A DNA stretch of 63,818 nt, counting the filler. It is 8 parts of 8 records of this genome, joined end to end, with 100 filler letters (N's around TTAATTAATTAA, not from the genome) between each part and the next. Parts side by side here need not be neighbours in the genome. Positions count along the whole stretch, not along the records: positions 28,168 to 38,149 come from SRR31147125_14582; 7 more parts are not named here. One strand, given 5' to 3'. Positions 19,404 to 44,425 of this stretch are shown here, one piece after another (position 1 is the first letter of the stretch; every line of letters starts with the position of its first letter). The notes under the pieces were generated by a model. That model saw nothing but the letters and a program-made list of their open reading frames with translations, made no database searches and was not told where the DNA came from. A program made the position numbers and the translations under genes.

Positions 19404-19503
19404 NNNNNNNNNNNNNNNNNNNNNNNNNNNNNNNNNNNNNNNNNNNNTTAATTAATTAANNNNNNNNNNNNNNNNNNNNNNNNNNNNNNNNNNNNNNNNN
19501 NNN
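19404..19503. other. Artificial contig spacer
   Basis: N44-TTAATTAATTAA-N44. Confidence 0.99.
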
Positions 19504-21261
19504 CCCCATTTACATAGGCTTCCGGATTTTTTTCATTTAAAGTCAACAAACAATACGCAGGGGAGCTTTTTAGCAGAGCTACGGAGTTGATTGCAGCCAT
19601 TCGACTGGCACCTAAACGGTTTAACTTACTTAGCTTGCTCCAGTCCGCCAAGAATGGGAACATGAGCTTTTGAAGCGAACTGATCTCCAAGTTAATCAAA
19701 TCCATCCCCTCATTCCTTTCATTTTCCACCAGATTGATCCATTTAAACAGCCCTTGGTGAAGCCGCTTCTCTTCAAATAAAATCCGGTCCGCATCATATA
19801 CAATTTTTTGCATTCGTTTTTTCGCATCCGGAGAGTCAATCCAAGCGATATTTACATTGGGATCGTCCTGAAGGATCGAGAGCAATTGATTTTTTGTTTC
19901 ACCTTCAATGGGTTGTTTTTCAAATGGATTTCTATTGACACATCTTGAAAAAAGGGAGGCGTGAAGCAGATCCTCATCAATGGAAACATCCTCAAAAGTG
20001 ATCTGAACGACCAATTCCGAATCAATGCCCTTTGGAAACATCTCACAATTGGCTCTCAAACCAAAATGGGACGCCGCAATCGACATATTTTCCGTAAAAG
20101 CCCCGAGTGTCATCAAAGTGGACTCTCCGTTGATATCATAAAAAAATCCGTTTTTCTCCAGATCTTTATACACATACAGTGTTTGATTTTCCCACTGAAC
20201 GATCCAAGGTTGAATGTTATCCGCAGACGGAGCCCATGTACCGGCCGCCACAAGATAGTTTACGACTTCTAAAGGAATTTCAGCTGTTCTGTTTTCCCAA
20301 GGTTGTGAAGGCAATTGTGGAAAATTGATGCCATCCGCTTTGTTGCCGGTTTTATTTTTATTGAGCATTCTCTTCACAACCATTGCTTTTATTTTCTGAA
20401 AAGGATGACGATTCCCCATATATAGTTTTTTACAGATATATTGCTGTGTGAATGGATCGAATTGAAAGTAATAAGGAACACCTTTGACTCCCTTTTTGCC
20501 TAAAATAATTCTGACCGCTTCCGTTCCTGCCATGGAAGAACAAAGTTGACACGCGATATTCAACGAGGGACCTTTTCCCGCTTTAAAGCTCACTTTTGAC
20601 ATATCCATATACTTGAACTGTATCGCTTTTGGAGCCAGTCCAAGTGCAAAGGCAAGATATTGCTCTTCCGGCTCCATATCATCTACAATGTTGAAATACT
20701 CATCAAACCCCATTCCCTGATCCGGTGCAAATATCAGCATCGCCGAACTGTATCCCAACGGCCCTGCGGTAATCACATGTACGCCTTTTTCACGGGCCCT
20801 TGTAAATAATAATCTACGAACGTCAAACGCAAAAAGTCTAAAGAATCAATAACCACATCGACCCCTTCAAGAAATGCATCGACATTCTCTTCACTAATTC
20901 CGGAAGGAAACTCTTTAAACCGGGTGTACGGATTGATGGTAAGCGCTTGCTCTTTCATGACCTCCAATTTGGGGCGCCCAAAATCAGGAATCCGGGCACC
21001 AAACTGCCGGTTCACATTCGCAGCTTCGTAAACGTCAAAATCCGAAATGTGAAAGTTTGAAACCCCAGTCCTCACCATGGTGATCAAATGAATCCCACCC
21101 ACCCCTCCCATTCCGGGAATGGCAACCTTGGCGTTTCCTAACTTACGCTGTTCATCTTCTGTAAAAAGCCCGATATTTCTTGAGAACGCTTCGTTCCGAT
21201 ATTCTTGTTCTGTAAATATACCAAAGGTTTTCAACTTTTCATAAAGCGTGGTTCTTTCCAT
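19504..21261 (-). CDS. ThiF adenylyltransferase-nitroreductase fusion (OxzB-like), split by a 1-nt indel at 20831-20835, 3' truncated
   Basis: ThiF part has AFSRNIG, GMGGVGG, DFD and NVNRQ. One extra T in the T5 run restores DSLDFFAFDVRRLLF...VITAGPLG and joins the second ORF, which has KGPSL and the nitroreductase motif WAPSADNIQPW. The ATG at 21261 has a GGAG SD. Confidence 0.85.
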
Positions 21262-23572
21262 TTGCAAGTTCTCCGGATTGAATATTTGATTTCCTTTTTT
21301 CATTAAAAAGATAGTGCATTACGGCCGGTAGGACAACAAGATCTCCAATAACTGCCAGCATCATTACAATTGCACTCAAAACACCAAAATATACGATTGG
21401 GACAAACCGACTAAACACCATGACGCCAAAACCATAGGTCAAAATAATTGATGAGGTCAGTATTGCTCTCCCTTTACCCATGATGATTTTCTCAATTGAG
21501 TCCGACACACGACCATTTTTAGTTTTTTGCCGTTTATATTCAAATAAAAAATGGATTGTATCGTCGACAGCAATACCGATGGCAACCGCTGAAATAAGCG
21601 AGGTTGCCGTATTGAGAGAAATACTGAACAGCCCCATGATCCCAAAGTTAAGTATTATGGGAAAAAGATTCGGTATGATACTCAAGAACCCTATGGAAAC
21701 CGAGCGCAGCACAATAAAAATAAAGGCAAAAATAACTATGACAGCAATGGTCAAACTATAAACTTGCCCCTCAACCAAAGCCGTGATGGTGTTTACCTCA
21801 TATACCGCTCGCCCGGTCACAAGGATTTCCAGATTTCCATGTGACGGCATCTCGGCAATATATTTTCGAATAGCGTCCACCATTATTTTTTGGTTTGCAG
21901 AACTATACTCATGGGTTCTTGCCGAAATCCTTGCGTGAGTATAGTCACTGTTAATAAAATCATCAACATCATCCGAATCATACAGCAACATGTATTGCGA
22001 AATGAGCTTTTGAGAGTCAGGTATCCTGTAATAGAGTTCATCCTCTGAGTGAAAAGACTGATTGATATCTTTAATAAAATCTACAAATGAAAGCGTTACA
22101 TCCACCATCGGTAACTGCTTCACATAGTTTTGAACTTCTTCCATGATTTTTAAGTTAGTCGGATCTTTAAATGCATCTTCATCATTCGACCGAAATGAAA
22201 CATCAACAGTTCCGACACCGCTCAGGCGTTTCTCTATTTGTGCAAGTGAGTGCCTTACCGGGCTGCTTGCTTTAAAGAATTCAAGCAAATTGGTTTCAAC
22301 ACGAATTTGAAAGGCACAAATAACGGAAAACAGAACAATCCCCCCACTGATCCAAAAAATAATCCGATTGAATTTCAAATTGAAATGCACCATTTTTTCC
22401 AACATTATTGTCACCCATTTACTATCGGACATTTTAAAAAACACTTTTTCAGACGGTAGCATAACTAAAAGGGGGACCATGAAAAAGAAAGAAAATATAA
22501 ATTCGAAGACCATACCTGCAGAAGCCATAAGAGCAAATTGTCTAATCGGTTCAATTGAGCTTGTCGCCAACGAAAGAAATCCAATGGCCGTCGTCAATGT
22601 CGTAAGAACACATGGTACAAAGATGCTCTGCAGGACATGGCACAGTGCCTTTTTTTTGTCTTGATAGCGTTGCAGCAGCCGAATATCCATATGTGAGAAG
22701 ATATGAACCGTATCACAAAGCGCCAACGCCATGATCAGAGGGGGGACAATTGACGTTACATTGTTCATGGCAATACCGGCAAGGTAAAACAACCCCATTG
22801 TCGATCCCATACACAAGCTGATATTGGCAAGACTCAGCAAGGTAATAGATAATTTACCGAAAAAAACAAAGATCGATACGGTAATCAATAAGTACGTCAG
22901 AGGGATAAAAATTGTCATATCCTCTTTCAGATACTTGCTCAAATAGTAATTGGTGGTTGTCCATCCGGCAACCCAGAATGTCGTTTCTTCATCAGCAAAT
23001 TGATCGATGATCTCGTTGCACCGTTCAAGTACAATGCGTCGATAATTCTCATCATCCGGCTTATCATAGATAAAAACGACGATCGCTGCAGTGTTCCCAT
23101 CTGCTGAAATCAAATTATTCAAATACAAGGGATTACCAATTGCCCGCTTTTTCAAACGTTCCAATGCGGTTGAATCCAAAGGGATCTCTCCTAAAAAGCT
23201 TCTAACTTCAAAATATTCATCTCCCCCAATTGTATCGTCGACATTCGCTAAACTCTTTACTTCACGAACGATATCAATTTCTTCAATTTTTTCTGTGATT
23301 TTTTTCAGCAATGTCAAGTTTTCATGGGTGAACAACTCATTTTTTTCAAAGGCAATGATAAAAAATTCATCATTGCCAAACACTTTCTTTACATTGTCAT
23401 AAATTTCGGTATTCGGATCATCATCGAGTGCGAAATAATCGACATTGTCGACAGTATCGACAAAAGGGGCGAACAAAGAAAAAAAGACCGCTAGTAACAC
23501 GGTGAATGTCAATAAAGCCTTATGGTATTTCAGTATTTTCTCAAAAAACATCATCATTCGGAATTCTTTCAT
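21239..23572 (-). CDS. MMPL/RND-superfamily lipid-type transporter
   Basis: Two repeats of a periplasmic loop plus TM bundle; TTLTTAIGF and GIAVDDTIHF motifs. Confidence 0.92.
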   Translation of the reverse strand: MKEFRMMMFFEKILKYHKALLTFTVLLAVFFSLFAPFVDTVDNVDYFALDDDPNTEIYDNVKKVFGNDEFFIIAFEKNELFTHENLTLLKKITEKIEEIDIVREVKSLANVDDTIGGDEYFEVRSFLGEIPLDSTALERLKKRAIGNPLYLNNLISADGNTAAIVVFIYDKPDDENYRRIVLERCNEIIDQFADEETTFWVAGWTTTNYYLSKYLKEDMTIFIPLTYLLITVSIFVFFGKLSITLLSLANISLCMGSTMGLFYLAGIAMNNVTSIVPPLIMALALCDTVHIFSHMDIRLLQRYQDKKKALCHVLQSIFVPCVLTTLTTAIGFLSLATSSIEPIRQFALMASAGMVFEFIFSFFFMVPLLVMLPSEKVFFKMSDSKWVTIMLEKMVHFNLKFNRIIFWISGGIVLFSVICAFQIRVETNLLEFFKASSPVRHSLAQIEKRLSGVGTVDVSFRSNDEDAFKDPTNLKIMEEVQNYVKQLPMVDVTLSFVDFIKDINQSFHSEDELYYRIPDSQKLISQYMLLYDSDDVDDFINSDYTHARISARTHEYSSANQKIMVDAIRKYIAEMPSHGNLEILVTGRAVYEVNTITALVEGQVYSLTIAVIVIFAFIFIVLRSVSIGFLSIIPNLFPIILNFGIMGLFSISLNTATSLISAVAIGIAVDDTIHFLFEYKRQKTKNGRVSDSIEKIIMGKGRAILTSSIILTYGFGVMVFSRFVPIVYFGVLSAIVMMLAVIGDLVVLPAVMHYLFNEKRKSNIQSGELANGKNHAL

Positions 23573-23593
23573 TTTTTAATTCTTCGTTTGATT

Positions 23594-23867
23594 ATGTCCA
23601 ACTCTTCAACCGTTCAAAACGCAGCCAATTTTTCCATGTTTATGGTGAACGTTTCCCAAGCGCTTGGAAGAACGACATCAGAAAAGACACCTTTCAGTGT
23701 CAATGATCTGAAAGCCAGATTTCACGGGGTTTTCTATATCAAAGAACTATTAAAAACTGACCCACGCTTTGACGGATCAGATATTTTTGATCGACTATAT
23801 GAGAAAATTGGCCGTATAGGCTGTATTCATCAACAACCTAAGACGGCATAATTGGCGAAGGTATTTG
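23594..23867 (+). mobile_element. C-terminal remnant of a DDE (IS4/IS701-like) transposase with a possible terminal inverted repeat
   Basis: VQNAANFSMFMVNVSQAL...FSVNDLKARFHG...IGRIGCIH resembles a DDE transposase C-terminus (recalled from memory, not searched). TTGGCGAAGGTATTTG follows the stop directly. Confidence 0.55.
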
Positions 23868-24089
23868 TTAATACGAAAGCGTATTTTCATTTTTCTTGAC
23901 TTATTTCACTTAAAAAATATAAATAGATAAATAGCGATTACTAATCAACAATTTTTATAATATTTAATACTGAGCTCACGCAATTCTTCGAACTCGACAT
24001 TGAATTTTCACAAGAATCCTGTCATGGCAACACTTTTCGATGCAAGCTGATACAAAAAAATATCTATAAAGACCAAAGGTGCCCCTAAC

Positions 24090-24812
24090 ATGTTAAAATA
24101 TGATCGATTCACATTCGGAGAGGCTGGCCCGGAAATATTAGACAAAATATACCGTTTGCGATATGAAGTCTACGCTTTGGAATTCGGCTTTGAAAACCCG
24201 AATGATTTTCCGGACAAACGAGAAACGGATCAATACGATCCGTACTCAATACATTTTATCGCTATGAATGAAGATCAGGATGTTATTGGTACGGTGAGAA
24301 TGATTCTACACTCTGAAGAAAATGGTTTTCCCATAGAACATGCATCCGAGATAACGGATTTTCATGACAAACCAGACAATAAAGCAATTACGGAAGTCTC
24401 GAGGCTCACTGTTTCAAAACTTCTCCGAAGAAGACCTGAAGATGGAATGCATGGTGTTGAGTCTTACATCAAAAAATCCCAAGGTGGGGTTTTGGATGAA
24501 CAGCAGCAATATCAAAATGAAAAAAGAAAGCGCCCGGCCATTGTTCTGGGTCTTTATCGTGCTGTTTATCAGAAGTGCAAAGAACTCGGCATCACCCATA
24601 TGTACATGATTACCGAAAATAAGCTCTTTCACGCGCTATATAAGTTTGGATTTATTTTTTCAAAGGTGGGAGCCACGGTCGAGTACCATGGTCAGCGCAC
24701 GCCCTATGCGACATCATGGCGAACCATAGAAGAGCATATGCATGTGCATCACCCTGGGCTTCTCGAATTTTTGTTATTCGGACTTGACCAAAAGTATCAT
24801 CCAAAATTTTGA
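24090..24812 (+). CDS. PEP-CTERM/exosortase-associated acyltransferase (ExoAT-type N-acyl amino acid synthase)
   Basis: IYRLRYEVYALEFGFE, ETDQYD, EVSRL...RRR and VEYHGQRTPY. Confidence 0.88.
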   Translation: MLKYDRFTFGEAGPEILDKIYRLRYEVYALEFGFENPNDFPDKRETDQYDPYSIHFIAMNEDQDVIGTVRMILHSEENGFPIEHASEITDFHDKPDNKAITEVSRLTVSKLLRRRPEDGMHGVESYIKKSQGGVLDEQQQYQNEKRKRPAIVLGLYRAVYQKCKELGITHMYMITENKLFHALYKFGFIFSKVGATVEYHGQRTPYATSWRTIEEHMHVHHPGLLEFLLFGLDQKYHPKF

Positions 24813-25635
24813 AACATGGCAATGTATTTGTAGTAACTCTGCAATGCACTGTATCTCTCTAAACCCTCAGCAGTATCGTTGGTTGTGAAAATTGTCGAGT
24901 CCGAGTTCTCTTTAAACAAGAAATGATACAGATTTTTCTCCGACTTCTTTTCACCATAGACCTTTTTGTATTTTTGCTCAATTGTTCTTAAATTGAGACG
25001 CATGGCAACAGCCGGGTTGTCATTCACATAGCCATACGCTTTTATCTCGCCGATCTTTTCAAAAAGCAAGATATCCTCATATAGCCATAAATATTTCGGA
25101 TGCGTTGTAATCACAAGATCATCGGCATCCATATACTCTTTTGAATAAAGAATTGTCATTCGACTCCCCAACATGGGAATCTTCATATTTCTTTGTCGAA
25201 ATAACGGCTCAGATGCTAAACATCCTGCCTCAACCAGAGAACGCCCCTCAGCCCGCATTTCATCCAGAACATCTTTAAATGCGCAATCCATGGGCAAACC
25301 ATCTTCTCGTGAATCCGGAAAAACACTGATTGTATATATAGGTACTTCTTGCCCACTTCCATCATTGAACATGCCTAAAAAACCCTCGAATCCGGATGCG
25401 AATGGTGTGGAATGATTCTCAATGCCGTAGAAGATGGCTGAATATAACCGGATTCAACATAGACATCATGAACCAAGCGAAAAGATTTGACATAGTGATC
25501 AAATGTTTCTGCCGGTCTAAAAGTAATGTTTTTCACATTTAATTGGAGTGGTTGCAGGTAATATCGGCTCAACCGAGAGCGAATCGCTTTTGGCATACAT
25601 CTTACAAACCATTTTCGAATCTTTTTCAAGTTCAA
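24797..25635 (-). CDS. FeeM-type N-acyl amino acid synthase (OxzA-like), split by a 1-nt indel at 25377-25382
   Basis: The first half has SFRLVHDVYVESGYI. The second half has DSREDGLPMD, LVEAGCLA, ITTHPKY...YEDILLFE and VNDNPAV. One extra T in the T6 run joins SRVF-LG-MFND. Probable TTG start at 25635. Confidence 0.82.
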
Positions 25636-25868
25636 GTATCTATACCTTTTCACAAATTTGTCAATAAATTGAATCCGACAGTAGCTCTTTTTCCATACAA
25701 GGTCAAGTAAAACGATTGCCAATCAATTTCAAAAATGTTTCCAAACCATCGATCCCGTTTTGACTTACCTGAAAACCGATTTCAAGATTCACAATACCAT
25801 ATGAATACACGACAAGGTTTCTGAAGCCGATAAATTGGATTATTCGCATGGTCGGCAAGTGGGATCAC

Positions 25869-25970: not shown

Positions 25971-27946
25971 TCAAATCAACTGCCGAATCTCATCCAGGCG
26001 CTCTTTGGTTGCCATCATTCCCCGCTCCATCAACACCCGGCCTTTATGGAAATCATCCCAGGCAAAGCCTTGCACATCGGGATAAAGAACAATATCGGCT
26101 TGTTCCGCATAATTACTGACAGCCCGGCCATGAACGATACTCATGGTACTGGAGATGACGCTCATTATCCCGGGCGGTTTGCCGTCGATTATCCCTTCTT
26201 GCGTCTGCTTTTCCACACAAACGGCAATCACTCGGTCCGCCCCTTTTTGAATCAATCGATCCACCGGAACAGGATTGAGCAACCCTCCATCCACCATCCA
26301 ACGACCATTGTATCCATAGGGTTCAAAAATACCGGGAATGGAGATACTGGCCCTAACCGCCTTGGCCACGCTCCCCTGCTCCATCAACACCTCTTCGCCG
26401 TTCAGGATATCCACCCCTACAAAATAAGACGGAATCTTCAAATCCAGAAAATCGGCATCATCGATGGCATTGGCCACCAGGTGCATGGCCTTTCTTCCTT
26501 TCAGCACCCCCTGGAAGGGCAATGTATAATCGAAAATTTCTCTCCTTGCAATTTTTCTGGACGGGAACAGGTCAATGGTGTTGCGCTTCAAGTGGTCAAC
26601 AGATGCCGCTGCCCCGTAAATCCCCCCCACCAGTGCCCCCATGCTGGTTCCGGCGATCATGTCGATGGGAATACCTTCATCTTCCAACACCTTGAGCACT
26701 CCGATATGGGCCCATCCCCTGGCAGCGCCGGCGCCAAGAGCAAGTCCGACCCGCACCCCGGCAATCTCCCGGGCCACGGCCCGTGAGCCTTTGATGGGAA
26801 ATCGCTTTTCCGTATCGATGCGATCCTGATAGGCACTGTCCGACCGCTCCACCCAAATTTGCGGCACCTCGGACAAATTGAGTCGTTCCTGAAGATCCTG
26901 CCGCGCCATTCCCCGTTCACCTAAAAGGTGGCTTACCCCCACACGTATTCGATCAAGTCCCGGCCCGGTGATCTTCTCGATTTCATTGAGGCGCTGCCGA
27001 ACTTGAGGCAATGCCTGTTTTGTATTGTTGATCAACACCAGATTTTTATCGCATAAACGAACCAGCAGCCGCTCCAACGCATTGAACTCATGGGAGAGCG
27101 TAAAAAAAGACAAATCAAACCGATCCCTGAAACTCTCCATCAGATGGGGCAAACAATTTGAAAGATGGTGGGAAAAGCCTTGATTCACCTGCAGCACGGT
27201 AAACCCGGATGGATGCTGAAACCAATGAAAATCCTTTGCTTTGTAGAGCCCGGCGGGGAGTAGGTCAAACAGCGTTGTATCCGGACAGATCACATCGTAC
27301 AAGCCCAGTTTATGCATAACATTTCGAAGCTCATGCTGGGGTTCCACAATCAACACCTTTTTAGGAGATTCGGTGGAGATGTGAAAAGCGACGGAGTAAA
27401 GAAAATGATGAAGTCCCAAACCGGGATCGGTTGCCGATACCGCATAAAAACCGGTTTGGGGGGTGTGCCGCTGCCTCGACACGCCATATCGACACTGCCG
27501 TCATTGACCATGCGACGCGCATAATAGCGACTGAGATAGAGCCCCATGCTTTTATGCTTCACCAACAGAGCCTCAAACTCCGGACGATGGATGGAGTAGA
27601 TGGTGGCATCCAGACTCACACGGGCAGTGGCATTTCTGAGCCCTTCTGAAAGTAGTGCCATCTCACCGAAAAAATCCCCCCGTCTCAACTCTGAAAGAAA
27701 GACTTCACTACGGCCCTTCCCTGCCGATATGACCACCACACCGGAACGGATAATGAACATGGCATCGCCGAACTCCCCTTCCCGGCAAATCACCTCCCCT
27801 TTTTCATAAGCGGTGCACTTAAATTGAAGTGCCATATCTTGAATTTGAGAAAAGGGGATTGATGAAAAGAGAGGAATTTTGGAAAGAAAGCGTTTCAGGT
27901 CATGGTGTTGATCACGATTATTCGTAGTCATTTTCAACAGCCCCAT
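25971..27946 (-). CDS. cNMP-binding domain + patatin-like phospholipase (NTE/RssA-like), split by a 1-nt indel at 27446-27450
   Basis: cNMP domain GDFFGEMALL...RNATA; patatin motifs GAGAARG, GTSMG and DGG. One extra T joins PKPVF-YAVSATD. Confidence 0.88.
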
Positions 27947-28035
27947 TCAAATACATTATAACCAATGAATTACAAAAAAAATTGAATTCACCTATCGCAG
28001 GTCTCAACAATTTCCGGTGTACCACAACCTGTCGT

Positions 28036-28067
28036 TTCCTCTCCATTCATGGAGAGGGGGAGGGGTG
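28036..28067. repeat. REP-like palindrome at the contig end
   Basis: CCTCTCCAT-tc-ATGGAGAGG followed by GGGAGGGGTG. The assembly breaks here. Confidence 0.5.
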
Positions 28068-28167
28068 NNNNNNNNNNNNNNNNNNNNNNNNNNNNNNNNN
28101 NNNNNNNNNNNTTAATTAATTAANNNNNNNNNNNNNNNNNNNNNNNNNNNNNNNNNNNNNNNNNNNN
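28068..28167. other. Artificial contig spacer
   Basis: N44-TTAATTAATTAA-N44. Confidence 0.99.
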
Positions 28168-28247
28168 CAGGCTGTTCCGGTGCATGCCCCGTTATTTACT
28201 TCGTTTATTCCAAGTTGTTTTAGTTCTTTTGAAATGTTGATTTTCAT
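28168..28247 (-). CDS. N-terminus of a probable ALDH7/AmaB-like aldehyde dehydrogenase (2-aminoadipate semialdehyde/P6C dehydrogenase), cut by the contig edge
   Basis: Reads MKINISKELKQLGINEVNNGACTGTA(W), resembling the 'LkqLGIxxxNxGxsTG' start of Bacteroidota ALDH7 proteins as I recall it. Only 26 codons are visible. Confidence 0.5.
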
Positions 28248-28280
28248 AATTTATTATTTTCTATTTTATTCTATTATTAC

Positions 28281-28487
28281 ACCACCCCACCGCTGAAAAC
28301 GCGGTACCCCCCTCCTCGAAAAGGAGGGGAAATTCGTGGTCCAAATCATATTTGTTCTTTCAAATTTTAAAACTCAATTCATTTTCTTTAGTCAAATAAT
28401 TTCCACTTCGCTATATCCTTTCACCGGCCCAGTTTCTACTCCTTTTCGAGGAGGAGTATCCCGATGGTTAGTCGGGAGGAGGTAGTG
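28281..28487. repeat. Inverted pair of REP-like double-hairpin elements
   Basis: Copies at 28281-28330 (+) and about 28435-28487 (-) share an identical core CTCCTCGAAAAGGAG, each preceded by a second GC-rich hairpin. Confidence 0.7.
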
Positions 28488-28501
28488 TTTTATTAATTAA
28501 C

Positions 28502-29704
28502 TTATACTCTCTCCAAAACCATAGAAAGTCCCTGCCCCACACCAACACACATTGTACATAAAGCATATTTGGCATTTGAATCCTGCAGCTGATAAAAAGC
28601 TGAAGTAATCAAACGTGCACCAGACATCCCCAGCGGATGGCCAAGTGCAATTGCTCCACCAAGCGGATTTAATCGTTCATCATTGTCATCCAATCCAAAC
28701 TCACGGATGCAAGCCAGCGATTGTGCAGCAAATGCTTCATTTAATTCGATTACGTCCATCTGATTGAGCGACATTCCTAATCTTCGCATTAGTTTATCGG
28801 TTGCGGGAACCGGCCCTATTCCCATAATGTAAGGAGGAACACCGGCTGCCTGAACACCCAGAATACGAACTTTAGGAGTTATATTGTATCTTTTTACAGC
28901 GGCTTTGGAAGCCACAATTACCGCAGCAGCACCATCGTTTATTCCCGATGCATTTCCGGCAGTTACTGTACATCCTTCACCTAACACAGGTTTTAAAGTC
29001 CGCAATTTTTCCAACGAAGTTAAACGCGGGTGTTCGTCTTGTCCCACCAAAATTGGTTCACTTTTACGCTGCGGAATAGAAACAGGAATAATTTCTTTAG
29101 CCAGTTTACCGTTGTTTTGCGCTTCTGCTGTTTTTAATTGACTGTTGTGGGCAAACTTATCCTGGTCTTCGCGACTGATTTTACATTCAACAGCCAAATT
29201 CTCGGCAGTTTGAATTAATGGGTCGGTGCCAAATTGTTGTTGAAATTTCTTATTTACAAAGCGCCAGCCAATGGTTGAGTCGTACACTTCGGGATTTCGG
29301 GAAAAAGCTTGTGTAGCTTTGGCCATAACAATTGGTGCCCGCGACATACTTTCTGCACCTCCGGCAACAATAAGGTCAGCCTCGCCGGCCTTAATTGCAC
29401 GGGCTGCAAGCCCAACAGCTTCCATTCCCGACGAACACAAACGATTAACGGTAACGCCCGGAACCGACTCCGGGAATCCGGCCAGAAGCAGCGCCATTCG
29501 TGCAATATTTCGGTTGTCCTCGCCGGCTTGGTTGGCATTACCCAAAATAACATCGTCAACAGCGCTTAAATCCATTTGCAGATTTCGCTGAATTAGTGCC
29601 TTTAAAGGAATAGCCGCCAAATCATCGGCACGGATAGATGACAAAGCTCCGCCGTATTTTCCAACCGGCGTTCGGATAGCATCGCAAATAAAAACTTCGT
29701 TCAT
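28502..29704 (-). CDS. pcaF: 3-oxoadipyl-CoA thiolase (PcaF/PaaJ clade)
   Basis: ICDAIRTPVGKYGGALSSIRADDLAA, ANQAGEDNRN, catalytic NRLCSSG, DSTIGWRFVN, GHPLG and CVGVGQG. Confidence 0.9.
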   Translation of the reverse strand: MNEVFICDAIRTPVGKYGGALSSIRADDLAAIPLKALIQRNLQMDLSAVDDVILGNANQAGEDNRNIARMALLLAGFPESVPGVTVNRLCSSGMEAVGLAARAIKAGEADLIVAGGAESMSRAPIVMAKATQAFSRNPEVYDSTIGWRFVNKKFQQQFGTDPLIQTAENLAVECKISREDQDKFAHNSQLKTAEAQNNGKLAKEIIPVSIPQRKSEPILVGQDEHPRLTSLEKLRTLKPVLGEGCTVTAGNASGINDGAAAVIVASKAAVKRYNITPKVRILGVQAAGVPPYIMGIGPVPATDKLMRRLGMSLNQMDVIELNEAFAAQSLACIREFGLDDNDERLNPLGGAIALGHPLGMSGARLITSAFYQLQDSNAKYALCTMCVGVGQGLSMVLERV

Positions 29705-29706
29705 AT

Positions 29707-31041
29707 TTATAGCTTATTTAGTTTATCAATCTTCGGTTTGAACGCTTTAAAAGCCTTCAGAAGTCCTTCCGTTAGTTTGTCAATTTCATTCTGAGTAATA
29801 ACAGTTGAAAGCATACACGAAAAGGTATTTATCATCAAGGTATTTTCCTGGTAATACATAAAGTCGAGCAGCTTGTTAATCAATGTTTTTCCCTCATCGC
29901 TTAAGTAAGCCTCGCGATATGTAGTTGGAGGAGTTGCGCGCAAATGCATGCGAAACATAGACCCGGCACCGGTTACAGACATTGGAACATCTGCCAGCAT
30001 CATCGCTTCCCGAATCTGACTTACTGCTTTTTCCGTCAAGGCATTCAATCTTTCCACGGCTTCCCTGTCGTAATATTTCATTGCTTCGTAGCCGGCTGTC
30101 ATTGTGATCGGGTTGGCCGAAAATGTTCCGGAATGAGGCAACAAAAGGCTCTTTTCATGCGGGTCGAAAACTTTCATCACTTCGGCTCTTCCGGCCACTG
30201 CTCCCACCGGAAATCCGCCACCGATAATTTTTCCAAGGGAAGTGAGGTCAGGTTTTACACTATATTTTTCCTGTGCTCCGCCGTAATTTACCCTGAATGT
30301 TATTACCTCATCGAAAACCAGCAAAGCCTCATTTTTACGGGTCCAGTCATAAAGGGCTTCAATAAAATCGTTGTTTCCGGGAACAAGTCCCACTCTGTGC
30401 GGAACAGGATCTACTATTACACAAGCAATATCAGCGGCTTGTTTATCGAGAATACTTAAGGTGCGTTCAATGTCGTTGTACGGATAAATAATTACATCTT
30501 TCGAGACACAGGGCGGCGTACCGTGAGCCAAAGGAACGCTGTGTGGTTTGTCTTCTTTTCCCCAGTTAGAAGGATTGGCAGTTTGGCTGACTTCTGCAAA
30601 ATCGTAGGTTCCATGATAAGCACCTTCGGCTTTGGCAATTTTTGGCCGGCCGGTGTAAGCGCGCGAAGCTTTTATCATTGCCATAACCGCTTCGGTACCG
30701 GAGTTTACAAACCGAATGCGTTCCAGACTTTGTACACGCTCGATTAAATGTGTGGCAAAGGCCACCTCAATTTCAGAGGCAAGTGTGTAGGCCGTTCCTT
30801 TTTTCAGCTGTTCGATAACCGCATTTACAATTGGCGCGAACGAATGCCCGTGAATTAAAGCTGCCATATTATTGGCAAAATCTATTCGTTTTGTGCCATC
30901 AATATCAGTTATGTAACAGCCTGACGCAGTGTTGGCATAGTTGGGATATGGTTTTCGGAAAATGGTATTCCGACTCACACCACCAACAATAACATTGCGT
31001 GCTTTACTGTACAATTCCTCGCTATTTTCTTTTTCTGACAT
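29707..31041 (-). CDS. Class III PLP aminotransferase, GSA-aminomutase-like, probable beta-amino-acid transaminase
   Basis: NSGTEA, GAYHG, FDEVIT, LGKIIGGGFPVGA (PLP lysine) and HSGTFSANP. The N-terminus reads GGVSRNTIF rather than the HemL GGVNSPVRAF. Confidence 0.85.
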   Translation of the reverse strand: MSEKENSEELYSKARNVIVGGVSRNTIFRKPYPNYANTASGCYITDIDGTKRIDFANNMAALIHGHSFAPIVNAVIEQLKKGTAYTLASEIEVAFATHLIERVQSLERIRFVNSGTEAVMAMIKASRAYTGRPKIAKAEGAYHGTYDFAEVSQTANPSNWGKEDKPHSVPLAHGTPPCVSKDVIIYPYNDIERTLSILDKQAADIACVIVDPVPHRVGLVPGNNDFIEALYDWTRKNEALLVFDEVITFRVNYGGAQEKYSVKPDLTSLGKIIGGGFPVGAVAGRAEVMKVFDPHEKSLLLPHSGTFSANPITMTAGYEAMKYYDREAVERLNALTEKAVSQIREAMMLADVPMSVTGAGSMFRMHLRATPPTTYREAYLSDEGKTLINKLLDFMYYQENTLMINTFSCMLSTVITQNEIDKLTEGLLKAFKAFKPKIDKLNKL

Positions 31042-31060: not shown

Positions 31061-31717
31061 TTATGACAAATGCAATTCAGCTTCGGTATGTTCCTGCAGA
31101 AACTTAAAATCCACTCCGGGAGCTAATTCCCTGACGAAAAGCTTTTTATCTTTCACATCAATTATTGCGAAGTTGGTATAGATTCTACTTACCACATTTT
31201 TACCCGTTAAAGGGTAAGTGCATTGTTTTACAATTTTAGGCACACCCGTTTTTGTGATGTGTTTTGTAATAACAAAAATGGTTTTTACGCCGGCTACCAA
31301 ATCCATGGCGCCACCAACTGCCGGAATATCATTTGGATTACCGGTAGACCAGTTGGCTAAATCGCCCTCTTCAGAGACCTGATAGGCTCCCAAAACACAA
31401 ATATCAATGTGTCCTCCACGTATCATCGAAAAGCTGTCGGCATGATGAAAATAAGCAGCACCGGGAATTGCCGTAACGTATTTTTTACCGGCGTTTACCA
31501 ATTCCGGATCTTGCTTGCCCTCATCGGCAACTTTGCCCATTCCGAGCAAACCGTTTTCGGTGTGGTAAATAACCTCGCGGCCTTCGGGAATAAAACCGGC
31601 CACCATTTCAGGAATCCCAATTCCAAGATTCACATACGCACCATCGTAAATATCCATGGCCACTTTTTGTGCCATTTCTGCGGTGGTCCAGCCAATGGTT
31701 TTAGTATTTAATTCCAT
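31061..31717 (-). CDS. pcaJ: 3-oxoacid (3-oxoadipate) CoA-transferase subunit B
   Basis: YVNLGIGIP, catalytic Glu in HTENG, SFSMIRGGH and PAVGGAMDL. The start is more likely the ATG at 31717 than 31753. Confidence 0.85.
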   Translation of the reverse strand: MELNTKTIGWTTAEMAQKVAMDIYDGAYVNLGIGIPEMVAGFIPEGREVIYHTENGLLGMGKVADEGKQDPELVNAGKKYVTAIPGAAYFHHADSFSMIRGGHIDICVLGAYQVSEEGDLANWSTGNPNDIPAVGGAMDLVAGVKTIFVITKHITKTGVPKIVKQCTYPLTGKNVVSRIYTNFAIIDVKDKKLFVRELAPGVDFKFLQEHTEAELHLS

Positions 31718-32423
31718 GATATTTTTCGTTTTTTGCAACCAGTTTCGATTCATCTGCCGGATTATTAACCTCCACTACGCGATGCACAAAAATGCCCGGT
31801 GTAATTACGTGTTCCGGATTTATTTCGCCCAATTCTACAACTTGTTTTGCCTGAACAATTGTTGTTTTTGCAGCCATGCACATTACCGGTCCAAAATTTC
31901 GGGCGGTTTTGTTGTAAATCAGATTTCCATATTTGTCGGCAGCAGCGCATTTTACCAATGCAAAATCGGCTTGAATGGCTTTTTCCATTACATAGCTTTT
32001 CCCATTAAATTGGCGTTGTTCCTTTCCATCGGCCAAGGGAGTATTTACCGAAGTAGGTGTAAAAAATGCGGGGATTCCTGCTCCGGCAGCGCGGATTCTT
32101 TCAGCTAAAGTTCCCTGCGGAACCAGTTCCAGTTCAATCTCTCCGGCACGATACAATTCAGGAAAAACCACCGAAATTGCGGTACGTGGGAAAGAGCAGA
32201 GAATCTTTTTCACCTGACGATTTTCAATTAACGCTGCCAATCCAACATGACCACTACCTGCATTATTGCTTACAATGGTTAGGTTTTTAGCTCCTTGATC
32301 TACCAAGGCATGAATAAGCTCAACCGGACTGCCGGCTTCACCAAATCCGCTAATCATTACAGTTGCACCGTCGAAAATTCCTGACACTGCTTCTTGTGCT
32401 GTTCCAACAACCTTGTTAATCAT
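31701..32423 (-). CDS. pcaI: 3-oxoacid (3-oxoadipate) CoA-transferase subunit A
   Basis: MINKV...GFGEAGSP, SNNAG, the PcaI-type CSFPR, PQGTLAERIRAAGAGIPAFFTPT and ARNFGPVM. Confidence 0.87.
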   Translation of the reverse strand: MINKVVGTAQEAVSGIFDGATVMISGFGEAGSPVELIHALVDQGAKNLTIVSNNAGSGHVGLAALIENRQVKKILCSFPRTAISVVFPELYRAGEIELELVPQGTLAERIRAAGAGIPAFFTPTSVNTPLADGKEQRQFNGKSYVMEKAIQADFALVKCAAADKYGNLIYNKTARNFGPVMCMAAKTTIVQAKQVVELGEINPEHVITPGIFVHRVVEVNNPADESKLVAKNEKYHGIKY

Positions 32424-32429
32424 TAGAAT

Positions 32430-33987
32430 CTAACTTTTTTGTTTCTCTCTTTTCAATGCTTCCTCAAGCTGGCTTTCAATAATTTCCAGCTCATCCTCGT
32501 AGAAATATTTATCTGCTTTGTAGGGCTTCAGTTTTTCAATGGTATTTTCCTGTTCGTCGTATTCAGCAAAATACACGTCGCTCATCCAGGTCATATTCCG
32601 TGCTTCGTTAAACTTCAGTGCAAAAACCTTTTCGCCATTAATTTTGGTAGTACCGAGCAACGATGTTTTTCCGGCCGACGAGGTCATGGTAATATATCTC
32701 GACGGGCGGTTTATGGAAGCTAATCCCTGAAAAACTTTATTGAAAATTTTTGCAATCTCTGCCAGTGGAGCAGTAAAATAATGATGTTCGCCGGTAGGTC
32801 GTGCACAGTACATCGAGTGGAAACCAATTCCCAACATGGCCATAATATTGCCAAGGTCGATCCAGTTTTGTGCCGAGCGGTCGATATCTACTTTGCCATT
32901 TTCGTCTTTAAAAAGGCTAATGTGGTTCATTATCGGACTTTGACTTTTAATATTCAGCCCGTACTTTTTTAAACGACGCACCGCAGCAACAGCTCCCGGA
33001 TTCATTAATTCGCGCGGAGTAGAAAGGTGTGCCATCCACATTACCTGGATCTCCATTATCGACCACATTTCTCAGTAATTCCAGAATCTTTTTGAAGCTA
33101 TTACTCAACAAAAATTCGGGATGAAAGGTAATTGCTCGCGAACCAATTCTAACTGTTCGAATGTGTTGCAATTCCTCATCTTTAATTAAAGGTGTAAGGT
33201 ATTCTTTCAGACGTTCGTAACTAATATAACCGCCATCGCCACCGGTAATTAAAATATCGGTAACTTCTTTGTGCTTTCTTAAATAATTATGTACTTGTTT
33301 TATGTCTTTCTGAACAAACATATCCTCGTCGCCACGAACCTGTGCATGGCGGAAACAGTAGGTACAAAAAGCAAAACAGTTTTGAGTTCCGGCATCCAAG
33401 ATCAATTTGATAGGCGGATATTTGTGCTGGCTGCCCTCCAGAATTTCAAGCTGACCTTCGTCGTTGTAGAAGAAAGGCTTATTTAGTTTTTGTTTGCCAT
33501 CGTGCGGGTTGGTTTTCAGCTGATAAGCTTCAACCACTTTCTTTCGTTCCACATCGCTGGTGGCATCGAGATATTTTTGCACATCATCTTTGTTAATCAT
33601 TCCGGCCTGTGGAAAAATTAAATGATAAAGTGAGTCGTTTTTATAATTCTCACGGTCTATGGTGTTCAAAATATGTTTTGTTGCCATAAAACGGTACACT
33701 TCCAGAAAAAACTCACGTTCCTTTTCATCGCCTATTTTTATGCCTTTTCCCTTCAGAATTTGCATAATCTCGCGAAATCCTTTCAATCCGGTATAATGAG
33801 TTTTCCCCGTGAACATTGCTTCGCCGGTCTTCTGAAATCCGGAATACTGCGGATAACAACTTTGCAAACGATTCAGCAGTCCCAGTGGAAGTAATTCTTC
33901 GTCTTCAATAGTTTTAATGGTTTCCGGTGCAAAATCGTAGGCACCCAACATTGTTCTGATATCAGAGCTTTTTATTTCTCTCTTCAT
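32430..33987 (-). CDS. KamA-family radical-SAM/PLP amino-acid 2,3-aminomutase, about 518 aa, split by a 1-nt insertion near 33051
   Basis: QHKYP, CFAFCTYCFR (CxxxCxxC), DILITGGD, QSPIMNHI and the PLP-lysine motif SSAGK. Removing one base from GAT AAT GGA G ATC CAG gives continuous VVDNGIQVMWMAHLSTPRE. Confidence 0.88.
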
Positions 33988-34491: not shown

Positions 34492-35817
34492 ATGAAAGTA
34501 TTATTACTTGGCGCCGGTATGGTTGCCAAACCCATTGCAGATTTTATTTTAAACAACAATATTGAACTTACTATTGCCAGCCGTACAGTTTCGAAAGCTG
34601 AAAAGCTGATTAAAGACCGCCCAAACGGGAAAGCTTTGGAATGGACCGTTGAAGATATTGAGACACTCGACAAACTGATTGCTGAACACGACCTGGCAGT
34701 AAGCCTTTTACCTTATACATATCATGTAACGGTAGCCAAACTTTGTATTAAGCACAAAAAAAACATGGTTACCACCTCGTATGTTTCGGAAGAAATGAAA
34801 GCACTTGATGCCGAAGCCAAAGAAGCTGGAATTATTATTCTGAATGAAATTGGGGTTGATCCGGGCTTCGACCACATGACAGCCATGCGTATAATCGATA
34901 AGGTTCAGGCTGAAGGTGGAAAGATTAAAGAATTCTACTCGTTGTGTGGAGCCTTGCCGGCACCCGAAGAAGCAGACAATCCGCTTGGGTACAAATTTTC
35001 GTGGTCGCCACGAGGTGTGATTATGGCCGGTAACAATGGTGCAAAATTCAAAAAAGAAGGAGAGATCGTAGAAATTCCGACCGAAAATCTTTTTAAGAAT
35101 CCACTGAAAATTAATTTCCCGGAAGTAGGAAAAATGCAGGTTTATCCGAACCGAGACTCGCTGGCTTATATTGATATTTACAAGCTGCCAAACGTAGAAA
35201 CAATGTACCGTGGCACTTTCCGTTTCCCGAACTGGTGCGAAACTATGGATGCCTTAAAAACATTAGGACTTACTACTTCCGAGCAAAAATCTTTTGAAGG
35301 AAAAACCTACCGAAAAGTTATGGCTCGCCGACTGCAGGTTTACCCAGCTAATCTTAAAGAAAAAGTTGCCGAACGATTAAATTTAACACTTGGAAGTCCG
35401 GCAATGGAAGCCATGGAGTGGCTTGGCTTATTCTGCGACGACCTGGTACGAATGGAAGAAGGTTCGAACTTAGACTTGCTTACCGACCTAATGCTACAAA
35501 AAATGATGCTGCCCGAGGGTGCACGCGATATGGTAATTATGCTCCACTCCTTCCTGGTTGAAAAGGCCGACGGAACAAAAGAGGTAATTAAATCGCGCCT
35601 GCTTGATTTCGCTACCAAAGAAGACACATCGATTGCCCGAACGGTTGCTTTGCCTGCTGCCATTGCAGTTAAAATGATTCTGGATGGAAAAATTACAGAC
35701 ACAGGAGTTCATATTCCGGTAGCCAAAACAATTTACGAACCAATTTTGAACGAATTGGAAAAATTAGGAATTGCGATGGTTGAAGAATGGGGACTTTCGG
35801 AGGAATTTAAGATTTAG
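34492..35817 (+). CDS. Saccharopine dehydrogenase (Lys9 / AASS SDH-domain-like, glutamate-forming)
   Basis: LLLGAGMV, SLLPY, MVTTSY, NEIGVDPGFDHM, CGALPAPE..DNPLGYKFSWSPRG, YPNRDS, RGTFR and IARTVALP. Confidence 0.92.
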   Translation: MKVLLLGAGMVAKPIADFILNNNIELTIASRTVSKAEKLIKDRPNGKALEWTVEDIETLDKLIAEHDLAVSLLPYTYHVTVAKLCIKHKKNMVTTSYVSEEMKALDAEAKEAGIIILNEIGVDPGFDHMTAMRIIDKVQAEGGKIKEFYSLCGALPAPEEADNPLGYKFSWSPRGVIMAGNNGAKFKKEGEIVEIPTENLFKNPLKINFPEVGKMQVYPNRDSLAYIDIYKLPNVETMYRGTFRFPNWCETMDALKTLGLTTSEQKSFEGKTYRKVMARRLQVYPANLKEKVAERLNLTLGSPAMEAMEWLGLFCDDLVRMEEGSNLDLLTDLMLQKMMLPEGARDMVIMLHSFLVEKADGTKEVIKSRLLDFATKEDTSIARTVALPAAIAVKMILDGKITDTGVHIPVAKTIYEPILNELEKLGIAMVEEWGLSEEFKI

Positions 35818-41249: not shown

Positions 41250-41681
41250 ATGAAGGAGATGACAGGAATTTCTAGGGTTACTACGGAAAAAGCAGAAATT
41301 AAATTATTACAGAATAGAATTGTTAAGGTTGTAATTTTTTCTAATTCAACAATTGACTTACAATCAGCAAAAATTATCGCTAAATCTATTGATGATATGT
41401 CTGAAAGTGGTATTCGCGCAACATTATTTGATGTGCGAAAAATGGTGAATATTACGACTGACGCAAGAAGGTACTTTAAAAATTACAAAAAGAAAAACGT
41501 TGCAGCAATAGCTATATTAATTGATTCAGCAATACAAAAAACTATTATTAAAATGCTATTGCGACTTACACCTCCAAGAATTGTAACACGAGTTTTTGAT
41601 GATGAAAAATCTGCAAAAATTTGGCTTAGAGCAAAAATTAAAAATTCAAAAGTAAAAATTAGTTCTGATGTTCTTTCCTAA
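41250..41681 (+). CDS. Hypothetical STAS/SEC14-like small protein
   Basis: Pattern DVRKM..ITTDARRYF...AIAILI...TRVFDDEKSAKIWL. Confidence 0.6.
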   Translation: MKEMTGISRVTTEKAEIKLLQNRIVKVVIFSNSTIDLQSAKIIAKSIDDMSESGIRATLFDVRKMVNITTDARRYFKNYKKKNVAAIAILIDSAIQKTIIKMLLRLTPPRIVTRVFDDEKSAKIWLRAKIKNSKVKISSDVLS

Positions 41682-43191
41682 GTAAATCTAAAATAGTTTT
41701 TACCGGATTAAACGTTTCTACAGGCACTTCAACAAATAAGGTATTCCAATCAGACATTGCACCGTTCCATAAACCTGGTAGTTCTAGAGCTTTTAAATCT
41801 CTTCCTTCACTAGATTTTTTAGAAATAAAACCTGTTTCAGGATCACGAAAATCAAAAAGATTATATTTTTCGCCCTTATAATTTTTTGTTGAGCAAATTA
41901 AATCAACAGGGTTAAAATGTGTTGCGTTTTCTAAATAACTGTTTTGCTCAGAATCATTCGTATCAATTTGTGATGTTTCCACAACTTGTAACGAAATGGA
42001 ACCATCTGAATTGTAAGCTAAGAATGGTCCGCCTCCTGGTTCTCCTTCATTTTTCACCATTCCACAAACGCGAATCGGACGATTAACTTTAGATTTTAAA
42101 TAATCTCTCTTTTGAGAATTATCCCAATTTGAAAAATCCGCGGGGAAATGAAACGCAAATGTCTCTTTATAAAAAGTTTCTATTTCATTTATCATTTCAT
42201 CAGTTAACTCTTTTGAACTATCTATTATTGAAGCGAAATCAAAAAGTTTTTCCCTGAGTTCAATAAGCTTACCTGCTAATGCTTTTTTATATGTTATTGT
42301 TTCACCTTTTAATTTATCGGGAACAACATTATCAATATTTTTAACAAAAATAATATCAGCATCAATGTCGTTTAAATTATCTAGCAATGCTCCGTGGCCT
42401 CCGGGACGAAACAGTAAATCACCTTTATTTGTTCTAAATGGCTCATTACTCAAATCAACAGCAATCGTATCCGTTGATGTTTTTTGATTTGAATATGATA
42501 TTGAATAATTTACTTTAAACTCTTTTGAATATTTTTTCAAAACATCATCGACTTGTTTTTCAAATGCTTTCTGATGTTCTACTGATACGGTAAAATGCAA
42601 TCTTACTTTATTGTCTTGACTTTTTGCATACAAGGCTCCTTCAACAAGATGTTCTTCTAAGGCCGTTCTTGATTTTTTTCCATAACTATGAAAAGCAAGT
42701 AAAGCTTTTGGTAAACTCCCATAATTTAAACCTTCATTGCCAATAAGAGATTTTGCAATTTTTTTATATTCTTTCTCTTCAATAAGTTGATCAATAGATT
42801 TATTGTAAGTTTTATTACACGCTTCATCTAATTTATTGTAAAATGCAAAACGGGTAAGCCCTTCAAAAAATGGAAGTAAATTCTCTGGAATTTTGTTATC
42901 AGTACCATTTACAAACTCAAAAATTGCTTTAAACATTCTTGATGCAGCACCCGAAGCCGGTACAAATTTTACAAGCGAAAGTTTTTTTGATTTTTTATCG
43001 TAGTATTCTTTCAGGGAAATAATTTCATCGTTACTGAGTTTCTCAATACCATTTCCAACTGAAGCAAATGTCTTCAATGACAAAAAATTAATTCCCTTTT
43101 TAAATGTTTCTATTTGATTATTTACCGATTCAGGAGTTATATTTTTTTTGCTAAGAAACTGTAAGTCAATATCTGAGAATAATTTTTTCAT
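41659..43191 (-). CDS. DUF4301 family protein (nucleotidyltransferase-like)
   Basis: KFVPASGAASRMFK, FRPGGHGALL, KNIDNV, RVCGMVKNEGEPGGGPF and LELPGLWNGAM. Confidence 0.92.
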   Translation of the reverse strand: MKKLFSDIDLQFLSKKNITPESVNNQIETFKKGINFLSLKTFASVGNGIEKLSNDEIISLKEYYDKKSKKLSLVKFVPASGAASRMFKAIFEFVNGTDNKIPENLLPFFEGLTRFAFYNKLDEACNKTYNKSIDQLIEEKEYKKIAKSLIGNEGLNYGSLPKALLAFHSYGKKSRTALEEHLVEGALYAKSQDNKVRLHFTVSVEHQKAFEKQVDDVLKKYSKEFKVNYSISYSNQKTSTDTIAVDLSNEPFRTNKGDLLFRPGGHGALLDNLNDIDADIIFVKNIDNVVPDKLKGETITYKKALAGKLIELREKLFDFASIIDSSKELTDEMINEIETFYKETFAFHFPADFSNWDNSQKRDYLKSKVNRPIRVCGMVKNEGEPGGGPFLAYNSDGSISLQVVETSQIDTNDSEQNSYLENATHFNPVDLICSTKNYKGEKYNLFDFRDPETGFISKKSSEGRDLKALELPGLWNGAMSDWNTLFVEVPVETFNPVKTILDLLRKEHQN

Positions 43192-44325: not shown

Positions 44326-44425
44326 NNNNNNNNNNNNNNNNNNNNNNNNNNNNNNNNNNNNNNNNNNNNTTAATTAATTAANNNNNNNNNNNNNNNNNNN
44401 NNNNNNNNNNNNNNNNNNNNNNNNN
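44326..44425. other. Artificial contig spacer
   Basis: N44-TTAATTAATTAA-N44. Confidence 0.99.

Follow-up and report, generated by a model that had tools for sequence, protein, structure and literature searches.

In a stretch of DNA of 63,818 nucleotides (parts of eight records joined end to end; hereafter, the window) we analysed a gene at 33987..32430 on the minus strand, which belongs to a conserved family within the KamA superfamily of radical S-adenosylmethionine (SAM), pyridoxal 5′-phosphate (PLP)-dependent aminomutases. The family probably acts on 2-aminoadipate, and the support for a 2-aminoadipate 2,3-aminomutase comes from substitutions predicted in its active site together with its gene context. 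We slightly favour the wider reading, that the family represents a new radical-SAM specificity (L-2-aminoadipate 2,3-aminomutase) and founds an undescribed, oxygen-independent branch of lysine degradation, which would lead from the saccharopine route via 3-aminoadipate into the lower β-ketoadipate pathway. Such a branch would bypass 2-oxoadipate dehydrogenase and glutaryl-coenzyme A (CoA) dehydrogenase in at least five bacterial phyla, mostly in anaerobic organisms of sediments and digesters. The chemistry and the fold are known; the substrate and the pathway are apparently new. The copy in the window carries an insertion that splits the gene, and is either inactive in this organism or mis-assembled, possibilities (pseudogene or error) that we rate about equal.

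A split KamA-like gene and its active site

The gene is made of two open reading frames (ORFs) in different frames, 32947..33987 (346 residues) and 32430..33068 (212 residues), which on read-through give a protein of 518 residues. The original prediction had placed here a KamA-like gene with an indel near 33051 and with intact CxxxCxxC and PLP-lysine motifs, and all of this held up: the product is a minus-strand KamA-like radical-SAM/PLP protein, and alignment of the window DNA with that of five related loci (L001, L002, L003, L004 and L007) revealed a single extra base at about 33052, which bears out the placement of the indel. This +1 frameshift (33051..33053, minus strand) is seen as a one-column gap in the five relatives, with AATGGaGATCCAGG in the window against AATGG-GATCCAGG or GG-TATCCAGG in the relatives; no second length change in the aminomutase gene was found in this alignment. 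In the protein alignment the intact relatives read across the break as ...VVDNG-IQVMWMAHL..., with the same length. For the whole-protein query, GATC was read as Asp at the break, which gives Asp where the relatives have Ile; the four-base steps GATC and GTCG were unique in frame, and GGAG (read as Gly) and GATA (read as Asp), which also matched other in-frame sites, were dropped.

The first, N-terminal ORF contains CFAFCTYC (33355..33378), the CxxxCxxC motif of the [4Fe-4S]/SAM cluster. The second ORF holds the substrate-pocket segment HSMYCARPTGEHHYF (32775..32819) and the motif YITMTSSAGK (32667..32696), which ends in the lysine corresponding to the PLP lysine of known enzymes (codon 32667..32669). 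All three elements lie on the minus strand, and are invariant or nearly so in an alignment of 17 family members, namely the window read-through and 16 intact relatives 67–85% identical to it. The segment SLFKDENGKVDIDRSAQNW (32862..32918, minus strand; columns 466–490 of a 37-sequence alignment) includes a 12-residue insertion specific to the family.

A search with the read-through protein retrieved 1462 proteins at E≤0.001, of which the best 120 are 498–547 residues long and 66–86% identical to it, and are named in their sources either 'hypothetical protein' or 'L-lysine 2,3-aminomutase'. With one genome taken per species, a relative is encoded in 471 of 492 matched stretches. The 80 best loci from species-representative genomes, to which the locus counts below refer (with neighbours taken within 10 kb), come from Prolixibacteraceae (Draconibacterium, Sunxiuqinia, Maribellus, Mariniphaga), other Bacteroidales, Lentimicrobiaceae, Ignavibacteria, Chlorobiaceae-labelled metagenome-assembled genomes (MAGs), one Acidobacteria MAG, Cloacimonadota and 'Edwardsbacteria'.

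The N-terminal ORF of the window matched all NCBIfam models of the KamA family, with scores of 42–62 bits against cut-offs of 199–650; the C-terminal ORF had no match among domain and NCBIfam models. The KamA family model itself (TIGR00238, cut-off 199.2) gave 62.1 bits for the N-terminal ORF and 73.5 for an intact representative, P0121. Scores against the equivalogs of known specificity were similarly low: 59.3 bits (60.3 for P0121) for lysine 2,3-aminomutase (TIGR03820, cut-off 525.4), 50.2 (51.7 for P0121) for glutamate 2,3-aminomutase (TIGR04368, cut-off 650), 43.0 for arginine 2,3-aminomutase (TIGR04468, cut-off 600) and 41.9 for EpmB (TIGR03821, cut-off 369.3). Among 42 relatives scanned, 41 matched KamA models and none reached any cut-off, the best TIGR00238 score being 149.2. 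Judged by these scores, the family is homologous to KamA yet falls outside its curated family model. In a library clustered at 50% identity there was one full-length close representative (873 bits), followed by a sister protein, P0124 (608 residues, 372 bits); the remaining matches were proteins of 400–530 residues that scored at most 263 bits and covered profile positions ~100–505. This gap in bit scores, together with the scores below the cut-offs, indicates a sharply delimited, highly conserved family within the KamA superfamily. The predicted N-terminal extension is also real, since LAM (lysine 2,3-aminomutase) residue 107 lies opposite family position 184, and amounts to ~80–100 residues that the distant KamA-like proteins lack.

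Within these distant relatives we noticed a large set of KamA-like proteins (P0129–P0264, 400–530 residues) that carry PYYMFVERDTG and RGPVMSxxxGK and likewise do not reach any of the curated KamA cut-offs; P0153 (882 residues), a member of this set, is a fusion with a histamine-N-monooxygenase-like domain.

Clostridial LAM (Clostridium subterminale, PDB 2a5h) is the only relative with a solved structure. Its sequence contains, letter for letter, the motifs YYIYQCDLSLG and VVDAPGGGGK that the original prediction had quoted, and the intermediate relatives have as their consensus the YYMFVERDTG that it had ascribed to further long KamA proteins. On its own, the family profile could be aligned with 2a5h over LAM residues 107–262 only, and the C-terminal ORF alone matched nothing in the PDB at E≤10, which is why the equivalents of LAM Asp330 and Lys337 were taken via intermediates. 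A profile including 30 intermediate relatives and P0124 aligned over LAM residues 99–324 (E 2.4e-39); the intermediate P0130 aligned over residues 104–337, and the alignment of a second one, P0164, ended at residue 313. The LAM positions were then carried to the family through the 37-sequence alignment with intermediates (window residues are numbered on the read-through).

By this comparison the catalytic machinery is retained. The three Cys of CFAFCTYC stand opposite LAM Cys125, Cys129 and Cys132 (CSMYCRHCTRR in LAM), and are invariant in the 37-sequence alignment and at least 90% conserved in a 64-sequence alignment. LAM Arg134, which we take to be the binder of the α-carboxylate, lies opposite the conserved Arg of CFRH, the next-but-one residue after CFAFCTYC, and the GGD segment of LAM aligns with the family as well. 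LAM Lys337, the PLP lysine, is opposite Lys437 of P0130, Lys441 of P0001 (a relative 86% identical to the window read-through) and Lys440 of the window, the Lys of AGK; it is at least 90% conserved in the wider alignments.

The side-chain pocket is where the family departs from LAM. Asp293 and Asp330 of LAM reportedly hold the ε-ammonium group of lysine. Opposite LAM Asp293 stands the Arg of CARP (window Arg396, codon 32799..32801), the LAM stretch Y290-Q-C-D293 being opposite F-v-e-R, and at the position of LAM Asp330 there is the first Thr of ITMT (window Thr433, codon 32688..32690), with VVDAPGGGGK of LAM opposite GPSMSAGPGK of P0130. Arg396, Thr433 and Lys440 are invariant in the 17 aligned family members, so that in place of the two aspartates of LAM the family has an invariant Arg and an invariant Thr; Tyr287-Tyr288 of LAM are opposite His-Ser. 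The alignments thus agree with the original prediction that the acidic residues are lost. Its further statement that an Arg is kept proved correct as to the presence of the Arg, and can be made sharper: since LAM Asp293 aligns with the Arg of CARP, a basic residue replaces the acidic one at that very position and is not merely nearby. Such an Arg would argue against lysine and for an anionic side chain, pointing to a non-lysine substrate. The residue that follows it is Asp in the intermediates and Pro in the family. The 12-residue insertion appears as a gap in all 30 intermediates opposite the family segment ...SLFKDENGKVDxDRSAQNW..., at a site which in LAM and the intermediate relatives is a short '(G/H)(I/V)ND' loop.

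A close relative has a LAM-like overall fold, as judged from an AlphaFold2 model of P0001 (an intact protein, modelled with the 64-sequence alignment in place of the broken window protein; mean predicted local distance difference test score 92.3, predicted template-modelling (TM) score 0.92). The best PDB match of this model was LAM 2a5h (E 1.5e-16, target-normalised TM-score 0.65, 419 aligned columns, 20% identity), and the next were generic radical-SAM enzymes with E of 9e-6 or worse and TM-scores of ~0.3 (0.28 for the first of them). Since LAM is the best and only strong structural match and the motifs align, the chemistry, a radical 1,2-amino shift, is very probably the same.

The family thus shares with LAM the CxxxCxxC motif, the Arg that follows, the GGD segment and the PLP lysine, and differs from it in overall identity (~20%), in Arg/Thr for Asp293/Asp330, in His-Ser for Tyr287-Tyr288, and in having the N-terminal extension and the insertion. 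Glutamate 2,3-aminomutase (TIGR04368) belongs to the KamA family and, like the enzyme proposed here, acts on an acidic amino acid. Presumably both positions of the LAM aspartates are non-acidic in it and one is basic, which is the same logic as in our family; the residues differ, however, being Arg and Thr in the family and reportedly Lys and Asn in the glutamate enzyme (the two were compared by model score and by these residues). The PYYMFVERDTG/RGPVMSxxxGK proteins (for example P0129–P0131, ~410–530 residues) have the Arg at the Asp293 position and the PLP lysine in common with the family, but are only 21–33% identical to it and have neither the N-terminal extension nor the 12-residue insertion.

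Operon partners and genes for 2-aminoadipate formation

Gene context gives independent support for 2-aminoadipate as the substrate, and carries most of the functional argument. The aminomutase is the first gene of a nearly universal five-gene operon, in which it is followed by the two subunits of a CoA-transferase (PcaI type and PcaJ type), a HemL-like aminotransferase and a PcaF-type thiolase. The four downstream partners were found in 76 (subunit A), 73 (subunit B), 72 (aminotransferase) and 70 (thiolase) of the 80 loci, and where at least 4 kb of downstream DNA is available, 67 of 68 loci hold all four, in this order and on the same strand. The exception is locus L012, in which the aminomutase gene is followed directly by one for an Aldedh-domain protein, 73% identical to the piperideine-6-carboxylate (P6C) dehydrogenase of L001.

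In the window all four partners are on the minus strand. Subunit A of the 3-oxoacid CoA-transferase (PcaI/ScoA type, 31701..32423) scored 364.7 bits with TIGR02429 (cut-off 128.5) and 203.5 bits with the AtoD-type model, under its cut-off of 315; subunit B (PcaJ/ScoB type, 31061..31753) scored 295.3 bits with TIGR02428 (cut-off 243.55). TIGR02429 and TIGR02428 do not separate 3-oxoadipate from acetoacetate as substrate. The thiolase (28502..29704) is of the 3-oxoadipyl-CoA (PcaF) type, with 666.6 bits for NF006551 (cut-off 605) and 641.8 for TIGR02430 (cut-off 597), and all nine thiolases taken from distant loci also passed both 3-oxoadipyl-CoA thiolase cut-offs, with TIGR02430 scores of 644–680 bits. 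The class III (HemL-like) aminotransferase (29707..31041; PF00202) scored 346.7 bits with the hemL equivalog, below the cut-off of 527.3. Its nearest solved chains are 6k8h (an unnamed class III enzyme), ForI and glutamate-1-semialdehyde aminomutases, and it matched solved β-phenylalanine aminotransferase and β-transaminases at ~1e-55. We propose that it is the transaminase for 3-aminoadipate (or 3-aminoadipyl-CoA).

The operon is linked to genes that would supply 2-aminoadipate. P6C dehydrogenase makes 2-aminoadipate from 2-aminoadipate semialdehyde. A gene for this enzyme follows the thiolase gene in 23 loci (L001–L011, L013–L017, L020, L021, L025, L026, L038, L051 and L052), every one of them in the Prolixibacteraceae-type group, the one nearest to the window, which with L012 makes 24 of 80; the aldehyde dehydrogenase scored 808.5 bits with the L-piperidine-6-carboxylate dehydrogenase equivalog (cut-off 730). 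The P6C dehydrogenase gene is followed by a second saccharopine-dehydrogenase-like gene, which occurs in 24 of the 80 loci. It is the second of its kind, since another such gene lies upstream of the aminomutase, in divergent orientation: in the window this upstream gene (Sacchrp_dh_NADP and Sacchrp_dh_C domains) is at 34492..35817 on the plus strand, and orthologues of the window type, 72–81% identical, are likewise found in this divergent position in 17 of the 80 loci. A gene of AlaDh_PNT type (lysine-oxoglutarate-reductase-like) occurs in L001, L002 and L076; in L001 and L002 it takes the place of the divergent window-type gene. Locus L076, from Cloacimonadota, has a Sacchrp_dh gene and an AlaDh_PNT gene directly upstream of the aminomutase on the same strand, an independent linkage in another phylum.

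Outside the Prolixibacteraceae-type group, 23 of 80 loci (L018, L023, L024, L028 and 19 others) have a gene for a protein with HTH_3 and cupin domains immediately ahead of the aminomutase gene and in the same orientation; this protein is a candidate effector-sensing regulator of the operon.

Proposed pathway and alternative functions

Based on the above, the pathway might proceed as follows. Lysine would be converted via saccharopine to 2-aminoadipate semialdehyde (P6C) and then to L-2-aminoadipate. The aminomutase would bind 2-aminoadipate as the PLP aldimine, the Arg found in place of LAM Asp293 would hold its distal carboxylate, and a 5′-deoxyadenosyl radical would drive the shift of the amino group from C2 to C3, giving 3-aminoadipate. 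The HemL-like aminotransferase would then produce 3-oxoadipate, the PcaI/J-type transferase would convert it to 3-oxoadipyl-CoA using succinyl-CoA, and the PcaF-type thiolase would cleave the latter into acetyl-CoA and regenerated succinyl-CoA. The net reaction would be conversion of 2-aminoadipate and an amino acceptor to succinate and acetyl-CoA, with no need for an oxidative decarboxylation. The order of transamination and CoA transfer could be reversed, with the transaminase acting on the CoA ester, as Kat does. The last two proposed steps are identical to those of the lower β-ketoadipate pathway (PcaIJ, PcaF), whose cut-offs the operon transferase and thiolase pass; unlike in that pathway, 3-oxoadipate would derive from an amino acid and not from cleavage of an aromatic ring, and the conserved neighbours in the 80 loci included no further pca genes. 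The suggestion of the original prediction, a dicarboxylic substrate such as 2-aminoadipate, therefore gains support from the aligned active site, the operon, and the linkage to P6C dehydrogenase and saccharopine genes.

Several observations weigh against 2-aminoadipate as the substrate. The Arg at the Asp293 position is common to the distant 'ERD' KamA-like proteins, and therefore does not by itself specify 2-aminoadipate. In 56 of the 80 loci neither a saccharopine gene nor a P6C dehydrogenase gene was found within 10 kb. In the window itself (64 kb, including 27946..28502 after the thiolase) there is no aldehyde dehydrogenase gene and no second saccharopine-dehydrogenase-like gene, which leaves the upstream saccharopine-dehydrogenase-like gene as its only gene of the saccharopine route. 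PcaF-type models also give high scores to related thiolases. Finally, a HemL-like aminotransferase beside a thiolase is also a signature of Kat, the characterised 3-aminobutyryl-CoA transaminase of a variant lysine fermentation (PMC3149608).

This last point leads to an alternative that we regard as unlikely, namely that the enzyme is a genuine lysine 2,3-aminomutase and takes part in a variant lysine fermentation of the Kat type, in which β-lysine is converted via 3,5-diaminohexanoate and 3-keto-5-aminohexanoate to 3-aminobutyryl-CoA and acetoacetyl-CoA; the adjacent genes would in that case encode an acetoacetate CoA-transferase, a transaminase for 3-aminobutyryl-CoA and an acetoacetyl-CoA thiolase. 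Perret et al. 2011 (PMC3149608) describe Kat as a HemL-like 3-aminobutyryl-CoA transaminase whose gene adjoins a thiolase gene in a Cloacimonadota genome, and a Bacteroidetes homologue with the same activity, encoded inside a lysine-fermentation cluster. The Kat-type system resembles ours in having a HemL-like class III aminotransferase adjoining a thiolase, a two-subunit CoA-transferase and an aminomutase step upstream, and in its hosts, which are anaerobic Bacteroidetes and Cloacimonadota. The gene types of our operon do match this set, and several sources call family members 'L-lysine 2,3-aminomutase'. However, both LAM aspartates are replaced (by Arg and Thr), and the LAM equivalog, whose cut-off is 525 bits, gives a score of ~60. 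By their scores the thiolases exceed the cut-off of the 3-oxoadipyl-CoA equivalog, and the transferase belongs to the PcaI/J and not the AtoD type. Among neighbours found in at least 6 of the 80 loci within 10 kb there was no kamD/E, kdd or kce-type cluster, and the linkage to P6C dehydrogenase and saccharopine genes also speaks for another route. The protein termini deduced from primers for Kat, for the homologue from Bacteroidetes and for AtoA and AtoD had no match among ORFs of at least 110 residues in the 80 loci, and the name Kat is absent from the 120 best relatives, at least 72% identical, of the aminotransferase in the Cloacimonadota operon. These two observations lower the probability of a Kat-type function without settling the matter.

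Equally improbable, in our estimate, is an aminomutase for another acidic amino acid, either 2-aminopimelate or glutamate; in the glutamate case β-glutamate would be converted to 3-oxoglutarate and its CoA ester, and finally to malonyl-CoA and acetyl-CoA. A basic residue at the Asp293 position would suit any substrate with a distal carboxylate, and the 56 loci without a nearby lysine-pathway gene would fit such a function; yet the glutamate 2,3-aminomutase equivalog gave 50 bits against a cut-off of 650, the types of thiolase and transferase point to a C6 3-oxo-dicarboxylate, and the only feeder genes that are recurrently linked to the operon are those producing 2-aminoadipate. On paper, the same gene set (aminomutase, saccharopine-dehydrogenase-like enzyme, aldehyde dehydrogenase, transaminase, PcaIJF types) would also suffice for another order of steps with the same end product, in which lysine is first converted to β-lysine and the saccharopine-type enzymes and the aldehyde dehydrogenase then oxidise its ε end to give 3-aminoadipate. 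We consider this order very improbable, given the loss of both aspartates that bind the ε-amine in LAM, with Arg at one of the positions, and an aldehyde dehydrogenase that passes the equivalog cut-off for the ordinary P6C enzyme.

In the open full-text literature we found no 2-aminoadipate aminomutase, no 3-aminoadipate metabolism and no route from lysine to 3-oxoadipate, though phrases with '2,3-' are not searchable as such; this search covered open texts without their supplements, leaving aside subscription and recent non-open papers, and an earlier description is therefore possible. One match to 'beta-aminoadipic' was a misprint in a reference list, and the matches to 'KamA' in PMC7661554 were to the author name Kamagata.

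If the function of the family as a 2-aminoadipate 2,3-aminomutase is correct, it would be the fourth amino-acid specificity of KamA enzymes, after lysine, glutamate and arginine, and 3-aminoadipate would be a new metabolite of bacterial metabolism. It would explain how many anaerobic or facultative Bacteroidota, Ignavibacteria and their relatives could convert lysine to succinate and acetyl-CoA without the oxidative decarboxylations of the known 2-aminoadipate routes. It would also correct the widespread annotations 'hypothetical' and 'L-lysine 2,3-aminomutase', as well as that of the aminotransferase (now 'glutamate-1-semialdehyde 2,1-aminomutase'), and metabolic reconstructions of communities in sediments and digesters would become better. 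For the production of β-amino dicarboxylic acids, too, such an enzyme would be attractive. Intact operons are present in cultured strains of Draconibacterium and Maribellus, in which the hypothesis is directly testable; locus L003, with an intact orthologue, is from Draconibacterium orientale DSM 25947.

State of the window copy and other loci

We give an even chance to the frameshift being an assembly or sequencing error, with the aminomutase gene intact in the organism. The one-base insertion is the sole lesion, both halves of the gene are free of stops and 67–85% identical to the 16 aligned relatives, and the remaining operon genes of the window are full length. Moreover, a second conserved gene in the window is split too. 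On the other hand, the extra base lies outside any homopolymer run, and the P6C dehydrogenase and second saccharopine-dehydrogenase-like genes, which follow the thiolase in the 23 closest relatives, are not in the window; taken together with the frameshift, their absence could reflect decay of the pathway in this organism.

The second split gene (44378..47853, minus strand) encodes a sensor histidine kinase with two-component regulator propeller repeats, and consists of two overlapping ORFs in different frames, 46756..47853 (365 residues) and 44378..46831 (817 residues). The closest relatives of its upstream piece are single proteins of 1145–1299 residues with the combined domain set.

A further overlap was seen at 25971..27946 (minus strand), where a cyclic-nucleotide-binding (cNMP-binding) ORF of 198 residues overlaps a patatin-like phospholipase ORF of 503 residues by 132 nucleotides. 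The G+C content of this stretch is ~50%, against 37–44% in its neighbourhood and 29–44% in the window overall, and the overlap could reflect another frameshift, a wrong start codon or acquired DNA.

The region 19448..25722 contains two genes resembling FeeM/GNAT-type N-acyl amino acid synthases, at 24090..24812 (plus strand) and 24797..25372 (minus strand), adjoining a gene for an MMPL/sterol-sensing-domain transporter (21239..23572) and a short ThiF-domain ORF (20773..21303), and may represent a small locus for a lipid or an N-acyl amino acid. At 41659..43191 (minus strand) the window also encodes a full-length DUF4301 protein, which scored 739 bits with the Pfam model.

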